A stretch of 64,000 bases of DNA from Candidatus Campbellbacteria bacterium (GCA_034521025.1 JAXHMZ010000004.1:41315-105314); one strand, 5' to 3'; counted from the first letter of the stretch, positions 2,464-32,659 are shown. Translations and numbers: made by a program. Notes: a model not told the origin generated them from the sequence alone.

Positions 2464-3300
2464 ATGCAGGTAATGCTAAGACTTCTAAGTAAAATTCTTC
2501 TTTTTGCCATAGCGATGTTTGCTCTCTTCGTTTTCTTTAAAGAACCTACTAATGACAGAGAATGGACGCCCGATTTGGCTAAACTGGCTCAGGTGGAGAT
2601 CTATGAAGGCGGAGAAGGAACAAAGGTGGGTATAAAAAATATTAGAGACTCGACATATGAAGACGGAGAAGAAAATATACAATACTACTCGCAAATATTT
2701 GATCTAGCGGAATTAAAGAAGGTTTGGTTTTTAGTTGAGCCATTTTCTGACTGGGAAGCGGCGGCGCATACCTTTTTTGTATTTGACTTTAAGGACGGTC
2801 AGTCAATCGGGTTTTCAGTGGAAGCTCGCAAAGAAAAGAATGAGAAATATTCCGCCTTGCGCGGATTATTTCGAGAGTATGAACTGCATTATCTGTTTGC
2901 AAGTGAGCGCGACCTGGTCCTTCGTCGGACCGATCATTTAGACCATGAGGTTTATATGTATCCGATAGATACAAATAGAGAAAATGTTAGAAACTTATTT
3001 TTACGCATAGCAAATAGAGCCGACGAATTGGAAAGTGAGCCAGCTTTTTATAATACTATTACAAGTTCTTGTACAACCACATTGGTCAGGCACATTAACG
3101 AGACCTCTCCCAACAAAATCAAATGGTGGCACAAAGCCCAGTATTTGCCTGGATTATCCGATAGGTTGGCCTACGACCTAGGTCTTATCGATACAGATCT
3201 CCCGTTTGAAGAGACGAGAGAGCAATTCAGCATTAAAGAGAAAGCAAATGACTGTGCCTCCAGTGACAACTTTTCTCTTTGCTTACGTGAAAAACTTTAA
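2464..3300 (+). CDS. DUF4105-domain protein (Lnb N-terminal-like), membrane anchored.
   Basis: The protein has an N-terminal TM helix and the motif FYNTITSSCTTTL, which is typical of the DUF4105 Y..N..NCTT signature. Confidence 0.5.
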   Translation: MQVMLRLLSKILLFAIAMFALFVFFKEPTNDREWTPDLAKLAQVEIYEGGEGTKVGIKNIRDSTYEDGEENIQYYSQIFDLAELKKVWFLVEPFSDWEAAAHTFFVFDFKDGQSIGFSVEARKEKNEKYSALRGLFREYELHYLFASERDLVLRRTDHLDHEVYMYPIDTNRENVRNLFLRIANRADELESEPAFYNTITSSCTTTLVRHINETSPNKIKWWHKAQYLPGLSDRLAYDLGLIDTDLPFEETREQFSIKEKANDCASSDNFSLCLREKL

Positions 3301-3391
3301 CGTGCTCCAGGGACAGCAGTTTTCATTTGAACTGAAATGAAGATCAAGTGCAGTTTTGTTATAATAGTCGTAGTAAATTCCAAGAAGTTAT

Positions 3392-11341: not shown

Positions 11342-11372
11342 ATATACCAAAAACACTTATTTTAGCCGTTCT

Positions 11373-11402
11373 AAATGCTTCAATCTATAGATTGAAGCAT
11401 TT
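11373..11402. repeat. Perfect 30-bp palindrome AAATGCTTCAATCTATAGATTGAAGCATTT; copy 1 of 4.
   Basis: The sequence is perfectly self-complementary. It lies 30 bp after the tgt stop and immediately upstream of the uvrB promoter -35. Further copies are at 27971-28000, 29159-29188 and 32565-32594. Confidence 0.9.
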
Positions 11403-11407
11403 AGCTG

Positions 11408-11436
11408 TTGGAAACTTCCTATTTTTCGCATACAAT
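11408..11436 (+). promoter_or_regulatory. Sigma70-like promoter for uvrB (TTGGAA-17-TACAAT).
   Basis: The -35 TTGGAA is at 11408-11413, the spacer is 17 nt, and the -10 TACAAT is at 11431-11436. This implies a near-leaderless uvrB mRNA with its ATG at 11446. Confidence 0.4.
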
Positions 11437-11445
11437 CAATCCGTA

Positions 11446-22456: not shown

Positions 22457-22486
22457 GAAAAACAGCACCTGCGTGCTGTTTTTTAG
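22457..22486 (+). terminator. Rho-independent terminator after the tRNA.
   Basis: cagcac-ctgc-gtgctg followed by T6. Confidence 0.6.
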
Positions 22487-23675: not shown

Positions 23676-24689
23676 ATGAGGAACGGTATCAAAAGACACG
23701 TTATAAGCTATCTGGCAATTGGACTTGCTGCTTTTGCCCTGCTCTTTTTCATAGCTCCTCAAAATGTAAGAGCAACAAGTGATCCACCACCAATGGTCAC
23801 CATAGAAGCCGAGTTAAATGATAATCTTTTTACACTGAAAAGAACTTGTTTGGATCAAAATTGTTTCTTTGTTCTTGAGGAAGATCAAACGGGTGATTTT
23901 TCTATAAAACGAGCTCACGACAAAGAAGATGAGTTCTCTATTCTTACTAGAGGAAGTGTATCGCGCGAAAACAATCGTATACGAATTCAACCTGATCCCT
24001 ATAGCATAAGGTACAAAGACGTTCCCTTTCGCGAAGACGCGTTAGTAGAAGCGTTGAAGGTGTTGATTCAAGATGATATTTCCGACATCAAACCAGTTTT
24101 ACTGCAAACATTTGAAGGATGGGCAAGAGTGGGAAGAGGGGCAAGCTTCACAGTTACTCCATATGAACCGAGCAAGGAAAGGGAACTTCAGAAAGACAAA
24201 AATAGACTTCTTGAGTGCTTCTTTAATGAGTACGAACGAAAAGGTGATTGGTTGATCATTTCAGAAGGAAATACTCGTGAGTACTGTTATCCGGATGGAA
24301 ATTTTAGTAGGTCGATTAACTACTCGCACTTTACGTATTTTCTTTTGACCAATATACACCAACTTCCTACCTATATTGGTCAATTACCTATTTTTCACCT
24401 TGTTATACTAATACTCATACTACTGGGCGTTGTAGGATTTATGTATCACCTCATCAGGAAAGGAAATTTTTGGCTTTTCTTGAAACCGAATAAAACCAAA
24501 GTAATTTTAGTAGTCGTATCAGGAATCATATTGACGGTCATATTCGCCGCTAAGTATATGCAACCAGGCCCTGCGATGTCCGTTGTTATTGGCGCGCGTA
24601 TAATAGATTATCTTATACAAATATATCTCCTTATCTGTGTGATCGGATATGTAATTTATAAGCTTAAGAATAGGCGGGAAACAAACTAA
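23676..24689 (+). CDS. Family member A of a paralogous 4-TM, 4-Cys surface protein family.
   Basis: It has a signal/TM helix, a PPP motif, CLDQNC, a second Cys pair (C...YCYPD) and three C-terminal TM helices. It shares FL(K/R)PNKTK...SGIILT...IDYL(I/V)(Q/E)IYLL(I/T)CVIGY with the genes at 28073 and 29268. Confidence 0.6.
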   Translation: MRNGIKRHVISYLAIGLAAFALLFFIAPQNVRATSDPPPMVTIEAELNDNLFTLKRTCLDQNCFFVLEEDQTGDFSIKRAHDKEDEFSILTRGSVSRENNRIRIQPDPYSIRYKDVPFREDALVEALKVLIQDDISDIKPVLLQTFEGWARVGRGASFTVTPYEPSKERELQKDKNRLLECFFNEYERKGDWLIISEGNTREYCYPDGNFSRSINYSHFTYFLLTNIHQLPTYIGQLPIFHLVILILILLGVVGFMYHLIRKGNFWLFLKPNKTKVILVVVSGIILTVIFAAKYMQPGPAMSVVIGARIIDYLIQIYLLICVIGYVIYKLKNRRETN

Positions 24690-26443: not shown

Positions 26444-26977
26444 ATGGTAGAAAATGTAACCCTTTTATTATCTATACTTACGGTCGTCGCGCAGATCTTT
26501 ATTTTTTTCGCGATAGTTGAGTTAATCCGGACAAGGGGCAAAAAAAAGAATTCTATGATCTTGCGATTGGTTGATCGCACTCCTGTCTTGTATTCATTTT
26601 TTATTGCCGCCTTAGCAATGCTCGGTAGTTTGTTCTATTCTGAAATAGCCCAGTATGATCCGTGTGAGTTTTGTTGGTATCAACGTATTCTTATGTACCC
26701 CTTAGTCGTATTGTTTGGCCTAGCTCTCTTGCGACGTGACCGTAATATTCTCCCTTATGGTTTCATTCTTAGTATAATCGGCGCAATAATTGCCCTCTAT
26801 CATTATCTAATGCAACTGGGATTCATTGCGCCAACAACCTGCAGCGCTGTGGGTGTATCGGTCTCTTGTTCCGATTCGTTTACGGTGACGTTCGGATACA
26901 TAAGTATTCCGATGATGGCCCTGACGGCATTTGCATTAATTATTATATTTTCAGTAATTTCACAAAAAAATGACTAA
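26444..26977 (+). CDS. DsbB/BdbC-family disulfide bond formation protein B.
   Basis: It has four TM helices. The motif YDPCEFCWYQRILMYP matches the BdbC CxxC. A second Cys pair lies in a periplasmic loop. Confidence 0.7.
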   Translation: MVENVTLLLSILTVVAQIFIFFAIVELIRTRGKKKNSMILRLVDRTPVLYSFFIAALAMLGSLFYSEIAQYDPCEFCWYQRILMYPLVVLFGLALLRRDRNILPYGFILSIIGAIIALYHYLMQLGFIAPTTCSAVGVSVSCSDSFTVTFGYISIPMMALTAFALIIIFSVISQKND

Positions 26978-27416
26978 CTATCAAAAATGGGCGCTTACTA
27001 GTTTACGCGTAGGCCTCGGATGGCTCTTCTTCTATGCGGGTATTACTAAAATTTTCGATCCGACCTGGTCTGCAGGGGTATTTCTTAGCAATGCTTCGAC
27101 TTTCCCAGAAATGTACGAATTTTTCGCGCATCCTGACGTGTTGCCGATCGTTAATTTGCTCAATGAGTGGGGACTCACGTTGCTCGGTGTTTCGCTTATA
27201 ACCGGTGTACTTGTTCGGGTTTCCGCGCCGCTTGGAGTACTGTTGATGCTTCTCTACTATCTTGCTTCGCTCGACTTTCCGATGGTGGGAGAGCATTCGT
27301 ATATAGTCAATGATCACATAATCAAAGTGCTCGCTCTTTTGACCCTTGTTGCGTTTAACGCCGGACGATACAAAAGCCTTGGTACTGTTATACGAAAAGG
27401 TCTTAAAAAGAAATAG
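26970..27416 (+). CDS. DoxX-family membrane protein.
   Basis: The N-terminus is MTNYQKWALTSLRVGLGWLFFYAGITKIF. It has four TM helices and overlaps dsbB by 8 bp. Confidence 0.7.
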   Translation: MTNYQKWALTSLRVGLGWLFFYAGITKIFDPTWSAGVFLSNASTFPEMYEFFAHPDVLPIVNLLNEWGLTLLGVSLITGVLVRVSAPLGVLLMLLYYLASLDFPMVGEHSYIVNDHIIKVLALLTLVAFNAGRYKSLGTVIRKGLKKK

Positions 27417-27473: not shown

Positions 27474-27546
27474 GGGCCATTAGCTCATTCGGTAGAGCGC
27501 ATCGCTGGCAGCGATGAGGTGACCGGTTCGATTCCGGTATGGTCCA
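27474..27546 (+). tRNA. tRNA-Ala (anticodon GGC).
   Basis: Acceptor GGGCCAT/ATGGTCC has a G3:U70 pair. D-arm is GCTC-ATTCGGTA-GAGC, anticodon loop CTGGCAG, T-arm ACCGG-TTCGATT-CCGGT. Confidence 0.8.
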
Positions 27547-27551
27547 CATTT

Positions 27552-27944
27552 ATGTTCGAAAATATGAACAGTGAAGGTGAAAACAGATCGACACCTGAGT
27601 TAGACAACCTACTAAAGCAAAGAGAAGAAGTCACTCGCCGTCTTTATGTAATGATGTTTGAAAATTTGGCGATATTTGGCGTGCCGGCTTTTGTGGCGCT
27701 CGTTGTTGGCTTGAAGTTGCGTGAGGAGTGGGGAAACATTGCTCTGTTTGCTTTGCTGGCTCTAGCTCTTGTTGTTTCTTGGTTGATCTTCTTCAGAAGA
27801 TATCGTTACTTTACCGGTGAGCTCGCCAAGCTAGAAACCGCGATCAAAAATGAAAGAAAAAGAGCCGGGATACCGGAACCGGAAGCGCCTGGCTACCCCG
27901 ACGAAGAAGAGGAAGAGAGCGACGAGGAAAAAGAAGAAGAATAA
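27552..27944 (+). CDS. Small two-TM membrane protein with an acidic C-tail.
   Basis: The ORF-track start at 27519 overlaps the tRNA, so ATG 27552 (or 27564) is more likely. The C-terminus is EEEEESDEEKEEE. Confidence 0.4.
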   Translation: MFENMNSEGENRSTPELDNLLKQREEVTRRLYVMMFENLAIFGVPAFVALVVGLKLREEWGNIALFALLALALVVSWLIFFRRYRYFTGELAKLETAIKNERKRAGIPEPEAPGYPDEEEEESDEEKEEE

Positions 27945-27970
27945 TAAAAATGACCAAATATAGCGATTCT

Positions 27971-28000
27971 AAATGCTTCAATCTATAGATTGAAGCATTT
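27971..28000. repeat. Palindrome copy 2 (identical to copy 1).
   Basis: AAATGCTTCAATCTATAGATTGAAGCATTT. It lies 26 bp after the upstream stop and 72 bp before the family-B start. Confidence 0.9.
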
Positions 28001-28072
28001 AATTGGTGGTTTGTAAGGTGTTTACTTCACTTTTGAGATTTTGTGATAAAGTTGACTTAAAGTTTTATAGTT

Positions 28073-29103
28073 ATGGCATACGTAAAAATTATAAAAACAT
28101 TAAGAAATTTTATAATCTATCCGGCTATAGTATTCGTGGTTCTCGGGATATCTCTTTATGTGGCTCCGCAAACTGTGGCAGCGATTAGTCCTCCTCCACC
28201 ACCAGAACCGGAAATTTATATAGAAGCTTCACTAGACGAAAACTTCTTTACACAAGAGACACAAGAGCGGGTCTGTTTGGATCAGGGCTGTACTTTTGTG
28301 TTAGAACCTGAACAAGATTCTGATGCCTATTACTTAAAAAAGGCTCACGAGCAAGGTCAGAAAGAAGAGCTTTCTTTACTGGGGATCGTGTCGCTTGAAG
28401 AGGGTTCCGTACTAATCACACCCAGTTCTTCACAGGAAGAGATTTCGCTAGATGAAAAAGCCCTTGTCGAGGCGTTAGATATGTTGATTGAAAATGACAT
28501 TTCTCCAATTGAATCTGATCTCTTACAAACACTTGAAAGATGGGCAGATTGGCAGTGGCAGATGGTGGTTATTCACTGTTGCCCACATACGAACAACAAG
28601 GGACAAGAGAACTCCAAAAGCAAAGAATAGGCTTTTTGATTTCATGTTATTACCCTGGGTACGAGCAAAGAGGAAGCTGGTTAATCACTATTGGAAACCA
28701 ACAGCGTGATTATTGTTCTGGTGGTCCCATGGATCACTCAAACTTTGCTCTTTATTTGTTGACCCATATTCCCGAACTACCAGTTACTTACCTCACTGGT
28801 CTAATTTTTGTACTGCTGGGCGCAGTGGTATTCATATATTATCTTGCCAGAAAAAATGAGCTCTGGTTCTTTCTAAGACCAAATAAAACTAAACTAATTA
28901 TAGTGATAATATCAGGGGCTATTCTCACATATCTACATATACCCTACATGCATTATTTCCCATATGATGTCCATCTAGATTTCCAAGAGCTTCTTTATAT
29001 TTTCGGCGCTTGGGTCATAGATTATCTCGTAGAAATATATCTCCTTACATGCGTGATCGGGTATGCGATGTACAGGCGCAGGATTAAGCGTACAACTAAT
29101 TAA
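28073..29103 (+). pseudogene. Family member B, disrupted by a frameshift near 28545-28560.
   Basis: Two overlapping ORFs (28073..28630 and 28540..29103) together align end to end with gene C. The frame change falls in a short direct repeat (tggcag tggcag), as if by slippage. Confidence 0.6.
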
Positions 29104-29158
29104 CTTTCACGGCTTCGTTGAATAACTTTGGAAGTTGTTCAACAAATATAGTGATCCT

Positions 29159-29188
29159 AAACGCTTCAATCTATAGATTGAAGCGTTT
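29159..29188. repeat. Palindrome copy 3 (variant AAACGC...GCGTTT).
   Basis: T>C in the left arm and the matching A>G in the right arm keep perfect dyad symmetry. The upstream ~55 bp are shared with copy 4. Confidence 0.9.
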
Positions 29189-29267
29189 ATTTGGTGTTTT
29201 GTGAGGTGTTTACTTCATTTTTTAGATTTTGTGGTAGCTTAAACTTAAGGTATTTTAATTGTAATAA

Positions 29268-30293
29268 GTGCAGAAAATGACAAAAACATCAAGGGGTTTT
29301 ATAGATTATCGTATAATCGGACTTTCTGCTTTTGTGTTGTTCTTCATTGTAGCTCCACAAACTGCGTCGGCCCTTAGTCCGCCGCCGGCGCCAAAGATTT
29401 ACATAGAAGCATCATTAGATGAAGGCCTTTTTACACAAGAGCAGATTTGTTTAGATCAAGGTTGTGCTTTCGTATTTGGCCCCGAGCAATCTTCTGATTT
29501 TTATTATATAAAGAGAGCTCACGAGCAGGATCAAGAAGAAGGCCTTTCTTTTTTTGGACAAGTATCGCTTGAAAAGAACTTTTTGCAGATTGAGCCTCCT
29601 ACCAGTCTCGAAAACAAAGATGTTCCTTTAGATGAAGCTGTGCTTGTTGATGCATTGGATGTGTTGATCGATGATGATATTTCTGACATCGAACCAATTC
29701 TATTACAAGCATTTAAAGAATGGACGGGGTCAAGGTACGGAGAAAGTCTCACTGTTGCACACCGTGAATCGGCCGAAGGGCGAGCACTAAAAGCATCGAA
29801 GAATACACTCGTTTTATGTAACTATATCGAATATCAACGAGAGGGAGATTGGTTGGTCACTCAAGGGAGCGTTGAGCGAAGCTACTGCTATCCAGACCAT
29901 AATACAATAGGTGTTTTTGGTCCACCGGATGTATCGATTCGCCATTCACACTTTGCGTTTTATTTACTGACTCATATGCACGAATTACCTATCTTTTACC
30001 TCGCTGGATTTATTCTCGTACTCCTGGGTGTTGCGAGGTTCATACATCGACGCATCAAGAGAGGGGAATTCTGGCTTTTTCTGAGACCGAATAAAACAAA
30101 AATAATTATACTGATCGTTTCCGGAATCATTTTGACTTACATATTAACTACAGAATATATGGAGCCGGGATTGGATGATGTGCGTTATATTCTCAGCACT
30201 TGGGTCATAGATTATCTTGTAGAAATATACCTCCTCACGTGCGTGGTCGGGTATGCGATGTATAAGCGAAGGATTGAGCGAGTAAGGAAATAA
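29268..30293 (+). CDS. Family member C (intact).
   Basis: It has a signal/TM helix, PPPAPKIYIEASLDE, CLDQGC, C..YCYPD and three C-terminal TM helices ending IDYLVEIYLLTCVVGYAMYKRR. Confidence 0.6.
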   Translation: MQKMTKTSRGFIDYRIIGLSAFVLFFIVAPQTASALSPPPAPKIYIEASLDEGLFTQEQICLDQGCAFVFGPEQSSDFYYIKRAHEQDQEEGLSFFGQVSLEKNFLQIEPPTSLENKDVPLDEAVLVDALDVLIDDDISDIEPILLQAFKEWTGSRYGESLTVAHRESAEGRALKASKNTLVLCNYIEYQREGDWLVTQGSVERSYCYPDHNTIGVFGPPDVSIRHSHFAFYLLTHMHELPIFYLAGFILVLLGVARFIHRRIKRGEFWLFLRPNKTKIIILIVSGIILTYILTTEYMEPGLDDVRYILSTWVIDYLVEIYLLTCVVGYAMYKRRIERVRK

Positions 30294-30786
30294 CTCGCGT
30301 CACTCAATAATGTTTGTTTTGTGCAAAAACATTGGAAGTAACGAGCTTGTATGATTATCAAGAATTCTCCAGTATCGTGGCAAGCTGAATCGCAAGAGCA
30401 CTTAAGATACCAATTAAAGATTTACCGTGAACATCACCTAACAAAAAGTTGTTAAATATTACACGAACCCCGAATTGTTTGAAAAAATTTCAAAAGAAAC
30501 GCAACAAAAAATGAGGGAGGGCAAAGGTCACATGGCTGCATCTGTGGAGGTACTGCGCAAATACCAAAACGAACTCCGCGATGCGCTCGGTGGTCCGCAG
30601 CAGTAATTCCAGCACTAGCGTAAGATAAAAGATTGTGGTATCGTCTCAGCAGAGAGGCGTCTTGGGGAGGACGTCTTTTCGTTTCTAGACGCAGTTACAG
30701 TACCAAGATGACTGTGACACTTGCACATTGACAGGGGAAGGAAGACAGAGGCAGGAAGAACAAATCCACCGAAAGGAGGTGAAATC

Positions 30787-32058
30787 ATGTACCGAACGCA
30801 AGTAGCTCGCGCCGCAATCGTTCTGTTTTGGATGACCTTAATGACGGTTGCGTTCGCGCAGCCATACGAGATTGTCCGGGCGGGCGACGAAAATCTGACG
30901 TTGCGCGTCGAGCGGGGGTTTACCCCGTGGGATTTCTGGGTGGCGAATGCCGACCGGAACACCTGCGGCTGGTCGGACTTCCGTCCGGCCGTAAACGCGC
31001 TCAACCCAAGCCATGTGGCGAGTGAGTTTCGCGCGATTGCGATCGACTCCGAATTCCGTGTGCCACAAGCGTGTGCTTCGGGCATAGTCAACGTGGCGCC
31101 AGCAGAAACGGATCTTGCACTGCTCGCAGAGAGCATCGATCGTTTCTCGGCGGCATTGGCCAATGCCGCGTCTCGGAACACGGTGAGCAGTGTAGAATTC
31201 GAGGAAATCGAGCAGCGCGTCAAGGGGGTTGAGGAGCGCATCGCTGAACTCGAAAACAACGATGAGCGGCTCAGCGGCCAAGTCGACGAGCTCTCCGCTT
31301 TCGTCGATGCGAGGTTCGCGAACCTCGCCCGAGAGCGCGACACCGGCGTGTTTTGGCAGTGGCCATATCGCTGGTGGGTGAGGGTTCTTATCTTTTTTGT
31401 GATCCTCGCGATTGTGGTTGCGCTACTCTACTACATAGAGCGCATCCGGAATGAGCGAAATCGCCAAAAAGGAAACCCTCCTGACCCGAAGTCGCGTATC
31501 ACGAAGATGCAGGATGAAATAGCCCGGCTTCGTGATAAAAATCAAGAGCTTCGAGACGAAGCTGTGGCCTACAAAGGAGCTCGCGACAAACTTCGCGAAG
31601 AAGTTGCGTTACTCAGAAATACGATCGAACGGCATAATGAAGAAAGCAACAAAATCCGCGAAGAACGCGATCGCGAAGTTGAAGCGCTTCGCGAAGAAGT
31701 GGATCGGCTTAGCAGGCAGGCGAAAGCATACCCCGAGGGGCATGTCGAGCGCGTGACAGTGCAGAACAAAACAACAGGAGGGGAAAAGGCCATGCTGTTA
31801 AAGCACGAACCTCCATATGTCACGGTATTCGACACCGACGGGAATCACATTAGTGGTCCCATGCACCGCAAAACGGCGATCAAACGCGCCGAAGAGAGCG
31901 AAGAAGAATCTGCTCATGCTAGAGGTGAGGTCGTCGAATCCGAGAAAACGTCAGAGGGGTCTTCCAAGAAAGGCAATCCCTCAAAAACACGCCGGGGCGG
32001 CAGACACGCCCATCGACGAAGGCAAAATCGCAACAAGAAGGACAAAGTGACGTCGTAG
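30787..32058 (+). CDS. Island-encoded bitopic membrane protein with a signal peptide, an ectodomain of about 190 aa, a TM helix and an R/E-rich cytoplasmic coiled coil with a basic tail.
   Basis: A GGAGGTG RBS lies 7 nt before ATG 30787. The order is signal peptide, TM helix VLIFFVILAIVVALLYYI, then heptad-like repeats (ARLRDKNQELRDEA...EALREEVDRLSRQ). The minus-strand ORFs 30615..31343 and 30838..31281 are GC-rich shadows. Confidence 0.6.
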   Translation: MYRTQVARAAIVLFWMTLMTVAFAQPYEIVRAGDENLTLRVERGFTPWDFWVANADRNTCGWSDFRPAVNALNPSHVASEFRAIAIDSEFRVPQACASGIVNVAPAETDLALLAESIDRFSAALANAASRNTVSSVEFEEIEQRVKGVEERIAELENNDERLSGQVDELSAFVDARFANLARERDTGVFWQWPYRWWVRVLIFFVILAIVVALLYYIERIRNERNRQKGNPPDPKSRITKMQDEIARLRDKNQELRDEAVAYKGARDKLREEVALLRNTIERHNEESNKIREERDREVEALREEVDRLSRQAKAYPEGHVERVTVQNKTTGGEKAMLLKHEPPYVTVFDTDGNHISGPMHRKTAIKRAEESEEESAHARGEVVESEKTSEGSSKKGNPSKTRRGGRHAHRRRQNRNKKDKVTS

Positions 32059-32204
32059 CTATACTCGACCAGTTGAAGCTTCAAGTGTGTCACACTTGTT
32101 GAGCGCCTGGTGTAGGTTGATGCTCCTGCTCATGTTGTAGCAGTAGAGCGCCCGTGGAGAGTAAACAGTTATCGACGTGCTTGATACATTTCTTCCCCAC
32201 CCCT

Positions 32205-32238
32205 GACTCCGCGGTCTCCCCGCCGCGGAGTTTTTTTA
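32205..32238 (+). terminator. Rho-independent terminator ending the island gene.
   Basis: ctccgcgg-tctccccg-ccgcggag followed by T7. Confidence 0.7.
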
Positions 32239-32282
32239 TACGTCAGCAAATTGATACACTTATACATATGGAAGAAAGACCT

Positions 32283-32508
32283 ACGTCATACCGATTGCGC
32301 GCACTGCTGGTGACTTTTATCGTTGTACTGATTGTTTCCGGAATCATTTTGAGTGCATATTAACTACAGAATATATGGAGCCGGGTTTCGATGATGTGCG
32401 TTATATTCTTAGCACTTGGATGATAGATTATCTTGTAGAAATCTATCTCCTTACGTGTGTGATCGGGTATGCGATGTACAGGCGCAGGATTAAGCGTACA
32501 ACTAATTA
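32283..32508 (+). pseudogene. 3' remnant (family member D) of a 4-TM family gene. It is a mosaic of C-like and B-like sequence and has an internal frameshift.
   Basis: 32283-32460 is nearly identical to the gene C 3' end, with a 1-nt indel that creates the stop at 32361. 32460-32508 and the following ~90 bp match the gene B 3' end and its downstream flank. Confidence 0.55.
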
Positions 32509-32564
32509 ACTTTCACGGCTTCGTTGAATAACTTCGGAAGTTGCTCAACAAATATAGGGATCCT

Positions 32565-32594
32565 AAACGCTTCAATCTATAGATTGAAGCGTTT
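32565..32594. repeat. Palindrome copy 4 (AAACGC...GCGTTT variant), 65 bp upstream of the atpB ATG.
   Basis: Identical to copy 3, including the flanking sequence. Confidence 0.9.
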
Positions 32595-32659
32595 ATTTAT
32601 TGAATAGTTTATCAGTTCTGCTTGCCCAAAGCGCTCTGCCGCGGTATCCTGAAGCGCGT

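Follow-up and report, generated by a model that had tools for sequence, protein, structure and literature searches.

The perfect palindrome that recurs four times in this stretch of a Candidatus Campbellbacteria genome is probably not the binding site of a regulator but is most likely the DNA image of a long RNA hairpin, which would serve as a Rho-independent terminator or insulator where plus-strand transcription units end and might also stabilise 3' ends. With moderate confidence, this intrinsic terminator/insulator hairpin can be placed within a lineage-specific intergenic repeat, which would have been multiplied mainly by tandem duplication or recombination of family-gene units and copied once into the gap between tgt and uvrB. 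Copies 2-4 would then be explained by the location of the repeat, which lies where units of a tandem surface-protein gene array begin or end; this array was inserted between a small membrane gene and atpB. Copy 1 would have been pasted upstream of the conserved uvrB promoter, after the tgt stop, by a copying step. We infer from the sequence that transcription stops at the hairpins, and the route proposed for copy 1 is likewise a reconstruction.

When the window, by which is meant the whole 64-kb stretch of DNA that was analysed, is searched with the 30-mer AAATGCTTCAATCTATAGATTGAAGCATTT, exact matches are found at 11373-11402 and 27971-28000, and matches with two mismatches at mirror positions (T4>C and A27>G) at 29159-29188 and 32565-32594. 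There are no further matches to AAATGCTTCAATCTATAGATTGAAGCATTT in the window at up to three mismatches and no extra, degenerate or decayed copies of the palindrome in its 64 kb at up to eight substitutions, and 100 dinucleotide-preserving shuffles gave no match against a chance expectation of 0. Isolated half-sites are also absent from the window, both as the 15-nt half-site with up to two substitutions and as sub-words of 9-12 nt. The first-pass annotation of this DNA had described a perfect 30-bp palindrome occurring four times, with a T>C and a matching A>G change in the third and fourth copies. The four occurrences (at 11373, 27971, 29159 and 32565), the mirrored changes and the perfect symmetry are all borne out, but the length is not: the perfect dyad covers 32 bp in every copy (TAAA...TTTA) and extends to 34 bp in copy 1 (CTAAA...TTTAG).

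Three proteins encoded in the window, UvrB, family protein C and ATP synthase subunit a, match proteins of a Candidatus Campbellbacteria MAG on a 166-kb contig with 100% identity. Nearly all genes in the window lie on the plus strand, and each of the four copies is intergenic, located past a plus-strand stop and upstream of the next promoter or start. The distance from the upstream stop to the start of the copy is 31, 26, 55 and 55 bp for copies 1-4, and that from the end of the copy to the next ATG is 43, 72, 88 and 65 bp, such that the spacings claimed earlier hold (26-55 bp after a stop and 43-88 bp before an ATG). Copy 1 ends 3-5 bp from the -35 box of uvrB, and copy 4 lies 26 bp from that of atpB. 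None of the copies in the 64-kb window falls inside a gene. The palindrome is accompanied on its left by a non-palindromic flank, CAAATATAGNGATYC, which in addition to the position in Table 1 occupies 29143-29157 and 32549-32563, with a partial match at 11363-11370, and flank and palindrome together constitute a unit of about 47-49 bp in fixed orientation.

Table 1. Coordinates of the palindrome copies and of the features that surround them in the 64-kb window.
Feature	Coordinates	Strand	Description
Copy 1	11371..11404	+	34-bp perfect palindrome, type I (T4/A27), between tgt stop (11341) and uvrB -35 box
uvrB promoter	11408..11436	+	TTGGAA-17-TACAAT; conserved in relatives
Copy 2	27970..28001	+	32-bp perfect palindrome, type I; 26 bp past stop of small membrane gene; left block boundary
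Copy 3	29158..29189	+	32-bp perfect palindrome, type II (C4/G27); between family genes B and C
Copy 4	32564..32595	+	32-bp perfect palindrome, type II; after family-gene relic; right block boundary
Left flank CAAATATAGNGATYC	27955..27969	+	non-palindromic, accompanies palindrome; local alignments and blastn self-comparison
Second AT-rich hairpin	29117..29143	+	GTTGAATAACTT-TGG-AAGTTGTTCAAC; right after gene B stop; 12-pair stem, minimum-free-energy fold
Hairpin	2390		AAATAAACCCGAG...CGGGTTTATTT, then TTTTTT
Hairpin	7541		ACAAAACCCGCGG...GGGTTTTGT
Hairpin	22458		AAAAACAGCAC...GTGCTGTTTTT
Small two-helix membrane protein gene	27552..27944	+	50% identity to L011 3559-3933; 62% to partial L010 gene
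Inserted block	27945..32621	+	by comparison with relatives; between membrane gene and atpB promoter; about 4.7 kb, copies 2 and 4 at its ends
Family gene B	28073..29103	+	signal peptide, proline run, C-terminal membrane helices; frame broken at about 28540-28630
Family gene C	29277..30293	+	338 aa; no palindrome after the gene
Family-gene relic, 3' end	32323..32509	+	89% to gene C 30106-30280; 93% to gene B 3' end
Putative atpB promoter	32622..32650	+	TTGCCC-17-TATCCT; 9 bp before ATG 32660; same arrangement in L010 (TTGCTC-17-TATCCT)

Support for reading the palindrome as a hairpin comes from the structure that it would specify in RNA. Each copy folds into a perfect stem of 14-15 bp capped by a UAUA loop, with energies of -16.5 to -21.6 kcal/mol and z-scores of -6 to -7 relative to shuffled sequences (copy 1: 15 pairs, -21.6 kcal/mol, z = -6.9; copy 2: -16.5 kcal/mol; copy 3: -17.9 kcal/mol), with AAA 5' of each stem and UUU(A)UUU 3' of it. 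Long stems make robust terminators (PMC10325885). The tails that follow the stem are UUUAGCUG in copy 1, UUUAAUUG in copy 2 and GCG-UUUAUUUGG / UUUAUUUAUU in copies 3/4. The plus-strand 3' side (TTTATTT) is more T-rich than its minus-strand equivalent (TTTAGGAT), which fits a segment with nearly all of its genes on the plus strand. Intrinsic terminators carry a U-rich tract of about 7-9 nt directly 3' of the stem, and a simple terminator scan accepts copies 3 and 4 (copy 3 with 14 pairs and the tail TTTGGTGTTT) and rejects copies 1 and 2. The palindrome thus resembles Rho-independent terminators in being a stable stem-loop just past a stop, on the coding strand, with A's upstream and U's downstream, and the hairpin or terminator option of the first-pass annotation fits this anatomy of fold, post-stop position and tails. 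It differs from them in three respects: the stem is AT-rich (4-5 G-C of 14-15 pairs, where the clearest terminators of the window have G-C-rich stems), the U-tract of copies 1 and 2 is short and interrupted, and the same sequence is used four times, something that is not normally seen with ordinary terminators, whose sequences are usually unique.

How exceptional is such a palindrome for this group of organisms? Other strong post-gene hairpins in the window (at 2390, 7541, 22458 and 32205) have unique sequences but the same A-tract/stem/T-tract form, and the relatives have numerous long perfect palindromes of the same kind behind their genes, each with a unique sequence, including a perfect 30-bp palindrome in L008 (6167), a 19-bp stem in L006 (1062) and a 50-bp perfect palindrome in L012 (1166). 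Long perfect palindromes of the A-tract/T-tract type are therefore common after genes in the clade, and the only unusual trait of the present one is that a single hairpin sequence is reused. Retention of the position with replacement of the sequence is typical of terminators, and this is the kind of turnover that is seen at kept positions in the spacers between tgt and uvrB and before atpB. One hairpin of the window, AAAAACAGCACCTGCGTGCTGTTTTT, which follows tRNA-Ala(tgc) at 22458-22483, is nearly exact across lineages with only about 80% UvrB identity; it is present twice in L005 (20959-20984 and 21177-21202, with the same flanks) and also in L011 (60-85).

Beyond the window, the 20-mer core of the palindrome has one exact match in GTDB species genomes (L001), three in JGI metagenomes (L002 and L003/L004) and none in viral contigs. 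L003 and L004 represent the same sequence from two samples, the former assigned to Candidatus Yanofskybacteria, where the hairpin AAAAACGCTTC...GAAGCGTTTTTTT follows the dnaJ stop and is itself followed by UUUUUUUAUU. The other core matches are in an unrelated MAG of 35% GC (then UUUUGUUUUU) and a contig of 35% GC (then UUUUUUAUUUUU). Common to all three organisms are the 8-bp top of the stem and the loop, and the outer stem bases differ yet pair (ACACTTC...GAAGTGT and GAACCTTC...GAAGGTTC in L001/L002); in all three a long U-tract is found on the strand of the upstream gene. Both sides are changed in 5 of the 15 pairs and 93% of cells remain paired, a count made on sequences preselected by their identical core. 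None of the organisms is a close relative. Homology of these matches was rejected, for a rough estimate allows a handful of chance matches among the many terminator hairpins in those collections. We take the core matches as a sign that such a hairpin can serve in termination and not as a sign of common descent with the copies. A search with Rfam 15 brought only two tRNAs to threshold in the window, with sub-threshold generic hairpins (Yfr10, miRNA precursors) around the copies; the 55-bp unit has no relevant match in phage and plasmid collections, and nothing relevant was found in the literature on REPs or terminators in Patescibacteria/CPR.

The four copies do not count as independent of one another because they share duplicated segments of 198, 94 and 49 bp. 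In the blastn self-comparison, copies 3 and 4 lie within a duplicated segment of 198 bp that is 93% identical (28995-29192 / 32401-32598) and that contains the 3' end of a family gene, the second AT-rich hairpin (duplicated at 32523-32549) and the palindrome. Pairwise local alignment of copies 2 and 3 gives 94 bp in common, comprising the palindrome, the 15 bp to its left and the region upstream of the family genes, and copies 1 and 2, which are 16.6 kb apart in unrelated contexts, have 49 bp in common that include non-palindromic flanks. Two haplotypes can be distinguished, type I in copies 1 and 2 (T at -2, T4, A27) and type II in copies 3 and 4 (C at -2, C4, G27). Since copies 3 and 4 belong to one duplicated block, the compensatory change that separates the types is a single evolutionary event (n = 1).

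Between copies 2 and 3 the palindrome has 2/32 differences, mirrored and complementary (U-A to C-G), as against 8/62 in the flanks, and the type II change adds a G-C pair at the base of the stem beside the U-tract. By our own estimate, the likelihood that two substitutions in the palindrome fall in mirrored and complementary fashion by chance is about 1%. The pattern suggests that the dyad itself is maintained and that the change is non-random, though a single event. A template switch during replication within the palindrome could, however, produce such a double change without selection (PMC8794818). The argument for selection that had been built on the variant thus survives in so far as the dyad is kept and loses the weight placed on the variant itself. 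More generally, an apparent compensatory change can be one inherited event that template switching is also able to explain.

The context of copies 2-4 is best appreciated by comparison with relatives. In L011 and L012, 20 bp separate the homologue of the small membrane gene from atpB, which follows it, and since the membrane gene directly precedes atpB in relatives the DNA between 27945 and 32621 is an insertion. From left to right it contains copy 2, gene B, copy 3, gene C, a GC-rich segment of 2 kb, a family-gene relic and copy 4. In the closest relative, L010 (atpB 80%, membrane gene 62%), a 102-bp spacer before atpB holds AT-only palindromes and not this one. These belong to a family, AATTATATAAT...ATTATATAATTCG, that occupies different intergenic sites in L010 (230-253) and L012 (1166-1215, where it forms a perfect 50-bp palindrome), which hints that intergenic palindromic units move or are reused in the clade. 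The putative atpB promoter (L010 283-327) would leave almost no leader with its 9 bp to the ATG, and the sequence GGTATyCT before the atpB ATG is kept even in relatives whose upstream gene ends immediately before it (e.g. L011 3934-3956). On the other side of the membrane gene, a tRNA-Ala(ggc) at 27474-27547 is situated between a DoxX-like gene (26970-27416) and the membrane gene, 4 bp before ATG 27552; the corresponding genes of L011 and L012 are 3-12 bp apart with no tRNA, and only L012 has a weak DoxX mark.

Within the block, gene B consists of overlapping ORFs in different frames (28073-28630 and 28540-29103), whose products align to residues 1-154 and 155-335 of gene C, and it would appear to be either a frameshifted pseudogene or the result of a sequencing error in the MAG. 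GC content is 0.506 at 30001-32000 compared to about 0.41 elsewhere in the window. The GC-rich segment (30300-32250), which lies between gene C and a 175-bp repeat of the gene C 3' end (32323-32496), carries an ORF of 445 aa (30721-32058) with a membrane helix and a coiled coil that has only weak Pfam matches of coiled-coil type, and ends in a canonical GC-rich terminator (32205-32232). Its composition and position suggest foreign DNA that may have replaced the 5' part of a third family gene; a phage origin for the ORF was rejected, no viral relatives being found.

The family to which genes B and C belong is very narrow, as a protein search returned two homologues (about 50% identity) besides the entry for gene C of the source genome. 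The homologues in L008 and L009 have flanks without the palindrome, as does the paralogue gene A. Gene A (23676-24689) is intact, 47% identical to gene C and located between tRNA-Ala(tgc)/ddl and a rhodanese gene; the homologue at 3605-4618 of L008 occupies the same position, and the gene A locus is probably the ancestral locus of the family, without the palindrome. In L008 the 3' end of tRNA-Ala, TTCGAATCCAGTCGGGTCCACCA (3120-3142), is duplicated about 185 bp downstream (3305-3330), just before the family-gene homologue, in what looks like the scar of a tRNA-integrated element. An island integrated at tRNA-Ala was also considered for the window and rejected, a second tRNA 3' end being absent from it.

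Copy 1 lies well away from this array, between tgt (PF01702) and uvrB, and here four lineages with UvrB proteins of about 80% identity (L005, L006/L007, L015 and L016) permit a comparison. L006/L007 and L016 retain the promoter as TTGGAr-17-TACAAT and lack the palindrome, and in them only 3-6 bp separate the -35 box from the tgt stop. L005 keeps the -10 box of uvrB and has an unrelated imperfect hairpin in place of the palindrome, and L015 also keeps the -10 box, with a different upstream gene and an unrelated hairpin of 10-bp stem before the uvrB promoter. The closest UvrB relative, L014 (96%), is represented without its upstream region. Copy 1 and the approximately 60 bp around it therefore represent a lineage-specific addition, because they are absent from the spacers of relatives despite the kept promoter. 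The good -35/-10 promoter that had been said to abut the copy at uvrB is confirmed and is conserved in relatives, but the suggested link between uvrB and the surface-protein cassettes is not sustained, since nothing ties them together beyond one extra copy of the 49-bp repeat.

Copy 1 counts against a purely terminator-based account, in that the uvrB copy needs a copy-and-paste step that terminator function leaves unexplained. The unit may be a small mobile palindromic repeat, akin to REPs or MITEs, which inserts intergenically and has terminator activity as a by-product. We regard this main rival as unlikely, though it overlaps with our preferred explanation because it concerns how the copies spread and not what they do. 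Compared with L006 and L016, about 60 bp of additional DNA lies exactly in the gap from the tgt stop to the uvrB -35 box, the 49 bp that copies 1 and 2 have in common recur across a distance of 16.6 kb, neither the relatives nor the scanned public collections contain the element, and the AT-only palindromes at differing sites in two relatives hint at movement. The palindrome further resembles REPs and BIMEs in being a short, repeated, extragenic palindrome, and REPs too can terminate transcription or stabilise mRNA. The REP elements of proteobacteria, which are present in tens to hundreds of copies per genome and often past stops, are mobilised by RAYT transposases. Of the four copies seen in the 64-kb window three lie within one array and only one outside it, and there are no decayed ones. 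REPs are imperfect and this palindrome is perfect; the unit starts with CAAATATAG...CTAAA and lacks a GTAG/GTGG head; and Pfam searches of 40 window ORFs, covering the array, both of its sides and the neighbourhood of copy 1, found no integrase, recombinase, IS transposase or Y1 transposase (RAYT). Unlike MITEs, the inverted-repeat arms are without flanking target-site duplication, neither this nor any flanking direct repeat being found at any of the four copies.

A related thought is that the palindrome acts as a site for site-specific recombination or as a cassette junction, in which the 34 bp would be divided into 13-bp arms and an 8-bp centre and copy 1 would be a secondary or unoccupied site. 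Copies 2, 3 and 4 are indeed found exactly at the outer and unit boundaries of the 4.7-kb inserted block, homology between copies 2 and 4 stops 3 bp past the palindrome, and the array can be written as n x [site-promoter-gene] followed by one last site. This boundary placement is what it shares with integron attC sites, loxP/FRT (13-8-13) and the pdif sites of Acinetobacter plasmids, and it agrees with the recombination-site proposal in the first-pass annotation, although no recombinase gene is present among the scanned ORFs of the 64-kb window. The centre TCTATAGA is symmetric and so confers no direction, attC R/L boxes, extrahelical bases and arms of XerC/XerD type are all missing, and to our knowledge the palindrome arms bear no resemblance to XerC/XerD arms. 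The boundary pattern would arise just as well if the repeats of a tandem gene array underwent unequal crossing-over or tandem duplication, the family homologues in L008 and L009 and gene A have no site, and gene C has no copy after it. Such a role is therefore very doubtful.

An extension, in which the 47-49 bp unit would be the recombination site of an undescribed CPR surface-protein cassette system and solo sites, such as copy 1, would be empty landing pads that also terminate transcription, we consider quite unlikely. Were it true, cassettes with their own promoters would enter, multiply and be swapped at these sites, which in this genome lie within the ATP synthase gene neighbourhood. Several known types of element were also checked and set aside. 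A replicon carries only one dif site, which lies at the replication terminus and consists of 28-30 bp, its two 11-bp arms enclosing 6 bp; a dif/Xer site was rejected on account of the four copies and a cumulative GC skew that rises monotonically, indicating no terminus in the window. The second hairpin was rejected as an integron core site (GTTRRRY / RYYYAAC) as the order of the motifs is opposite to that of attC, and a CRISPR repeat was rejected on the basis of spacings of 1188 and 3406 bp.

That the palindrome is a shared operator, through which a dimeric regulator would co-control uvrB, the family genes and atpB, is very improbable indeed. A perfect dyad upstream of four genes and the proximity of copy 1 to the uvrB -35 box do speak for such a role, but a perfect dyad of 32-34 bp far exceeds a typical operator, and operators tolerate asymmetry. 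Mirrored complementary substitutions are predicted by base pairing and not by protein recognition of half-sites. The distance from dyad centre to ATG varies (59, 87, 103 and 80 bp), single half-sites or degenerate sites number 0 in 64 kb, relatives keep the uvrB and atpB promoters without the palindrome, and no regulator gene has been gained beside any copy. The LexA box of Escherichia type is CTGT-N8-ACAG and the Cheo box GAAC-N4-GTTC, and neither motif occurs in 11342-11445, in agreement with the earlier statement that the palindrome matches neither. The shared-operator suggestion is thus unsupported when the dyad length, the pairing-type variation, the varying spacing and the four relatives with the uvrB promoter alone are considered together. 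The same absence of isolated half-sites from the 64 kb led to rejection of a half-site word of the operator or DNA-uptake-sequence type; the palindrome is like the inverted pairs of Neisseria DNA uptake sequences as a repeated sequence that forms terminator hairpins after genes, and unlike them in that its half-sites are never single.

Least likely of all is that the palindrome has no function of its own, being a neutral by-product of recent duplication kept perfect by template switching or in part an assembly artefact. In favour of this, segmental duplication accounts for three of the copies, template switching can create and repair perfect stems without selection (PMC8794818), and the source is a MAG whose inserted block includes a stretch of foreign composition. 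Against it, differences are fewer in the palindrome than in the flanking DNA (2/32 vs 8/62), every copy is in a gap between terminator and promoter with none in coding DNA, and the sequence on either side of each copy continues without a break into conserved genes and promoters.

If the terminator/insulator hairpin is the correct reading, the palindrome would represent routine genome punctuation, useful mainly for the annotation of transcription units in an uncultured Candidatus Campbellbacteria genome (CPR, Paceibacterota). It would matter more if the unit were mobile or a recombination site, as small mobile repeats and cassette systems are hardly described in these reduced genomes. For the organism itself, what emerges is how a variable surface-protein array came to lie immediately before the ATP synthase operon, between genes that adjoin each other in relatives, and brought along hairpins that would insulate it.
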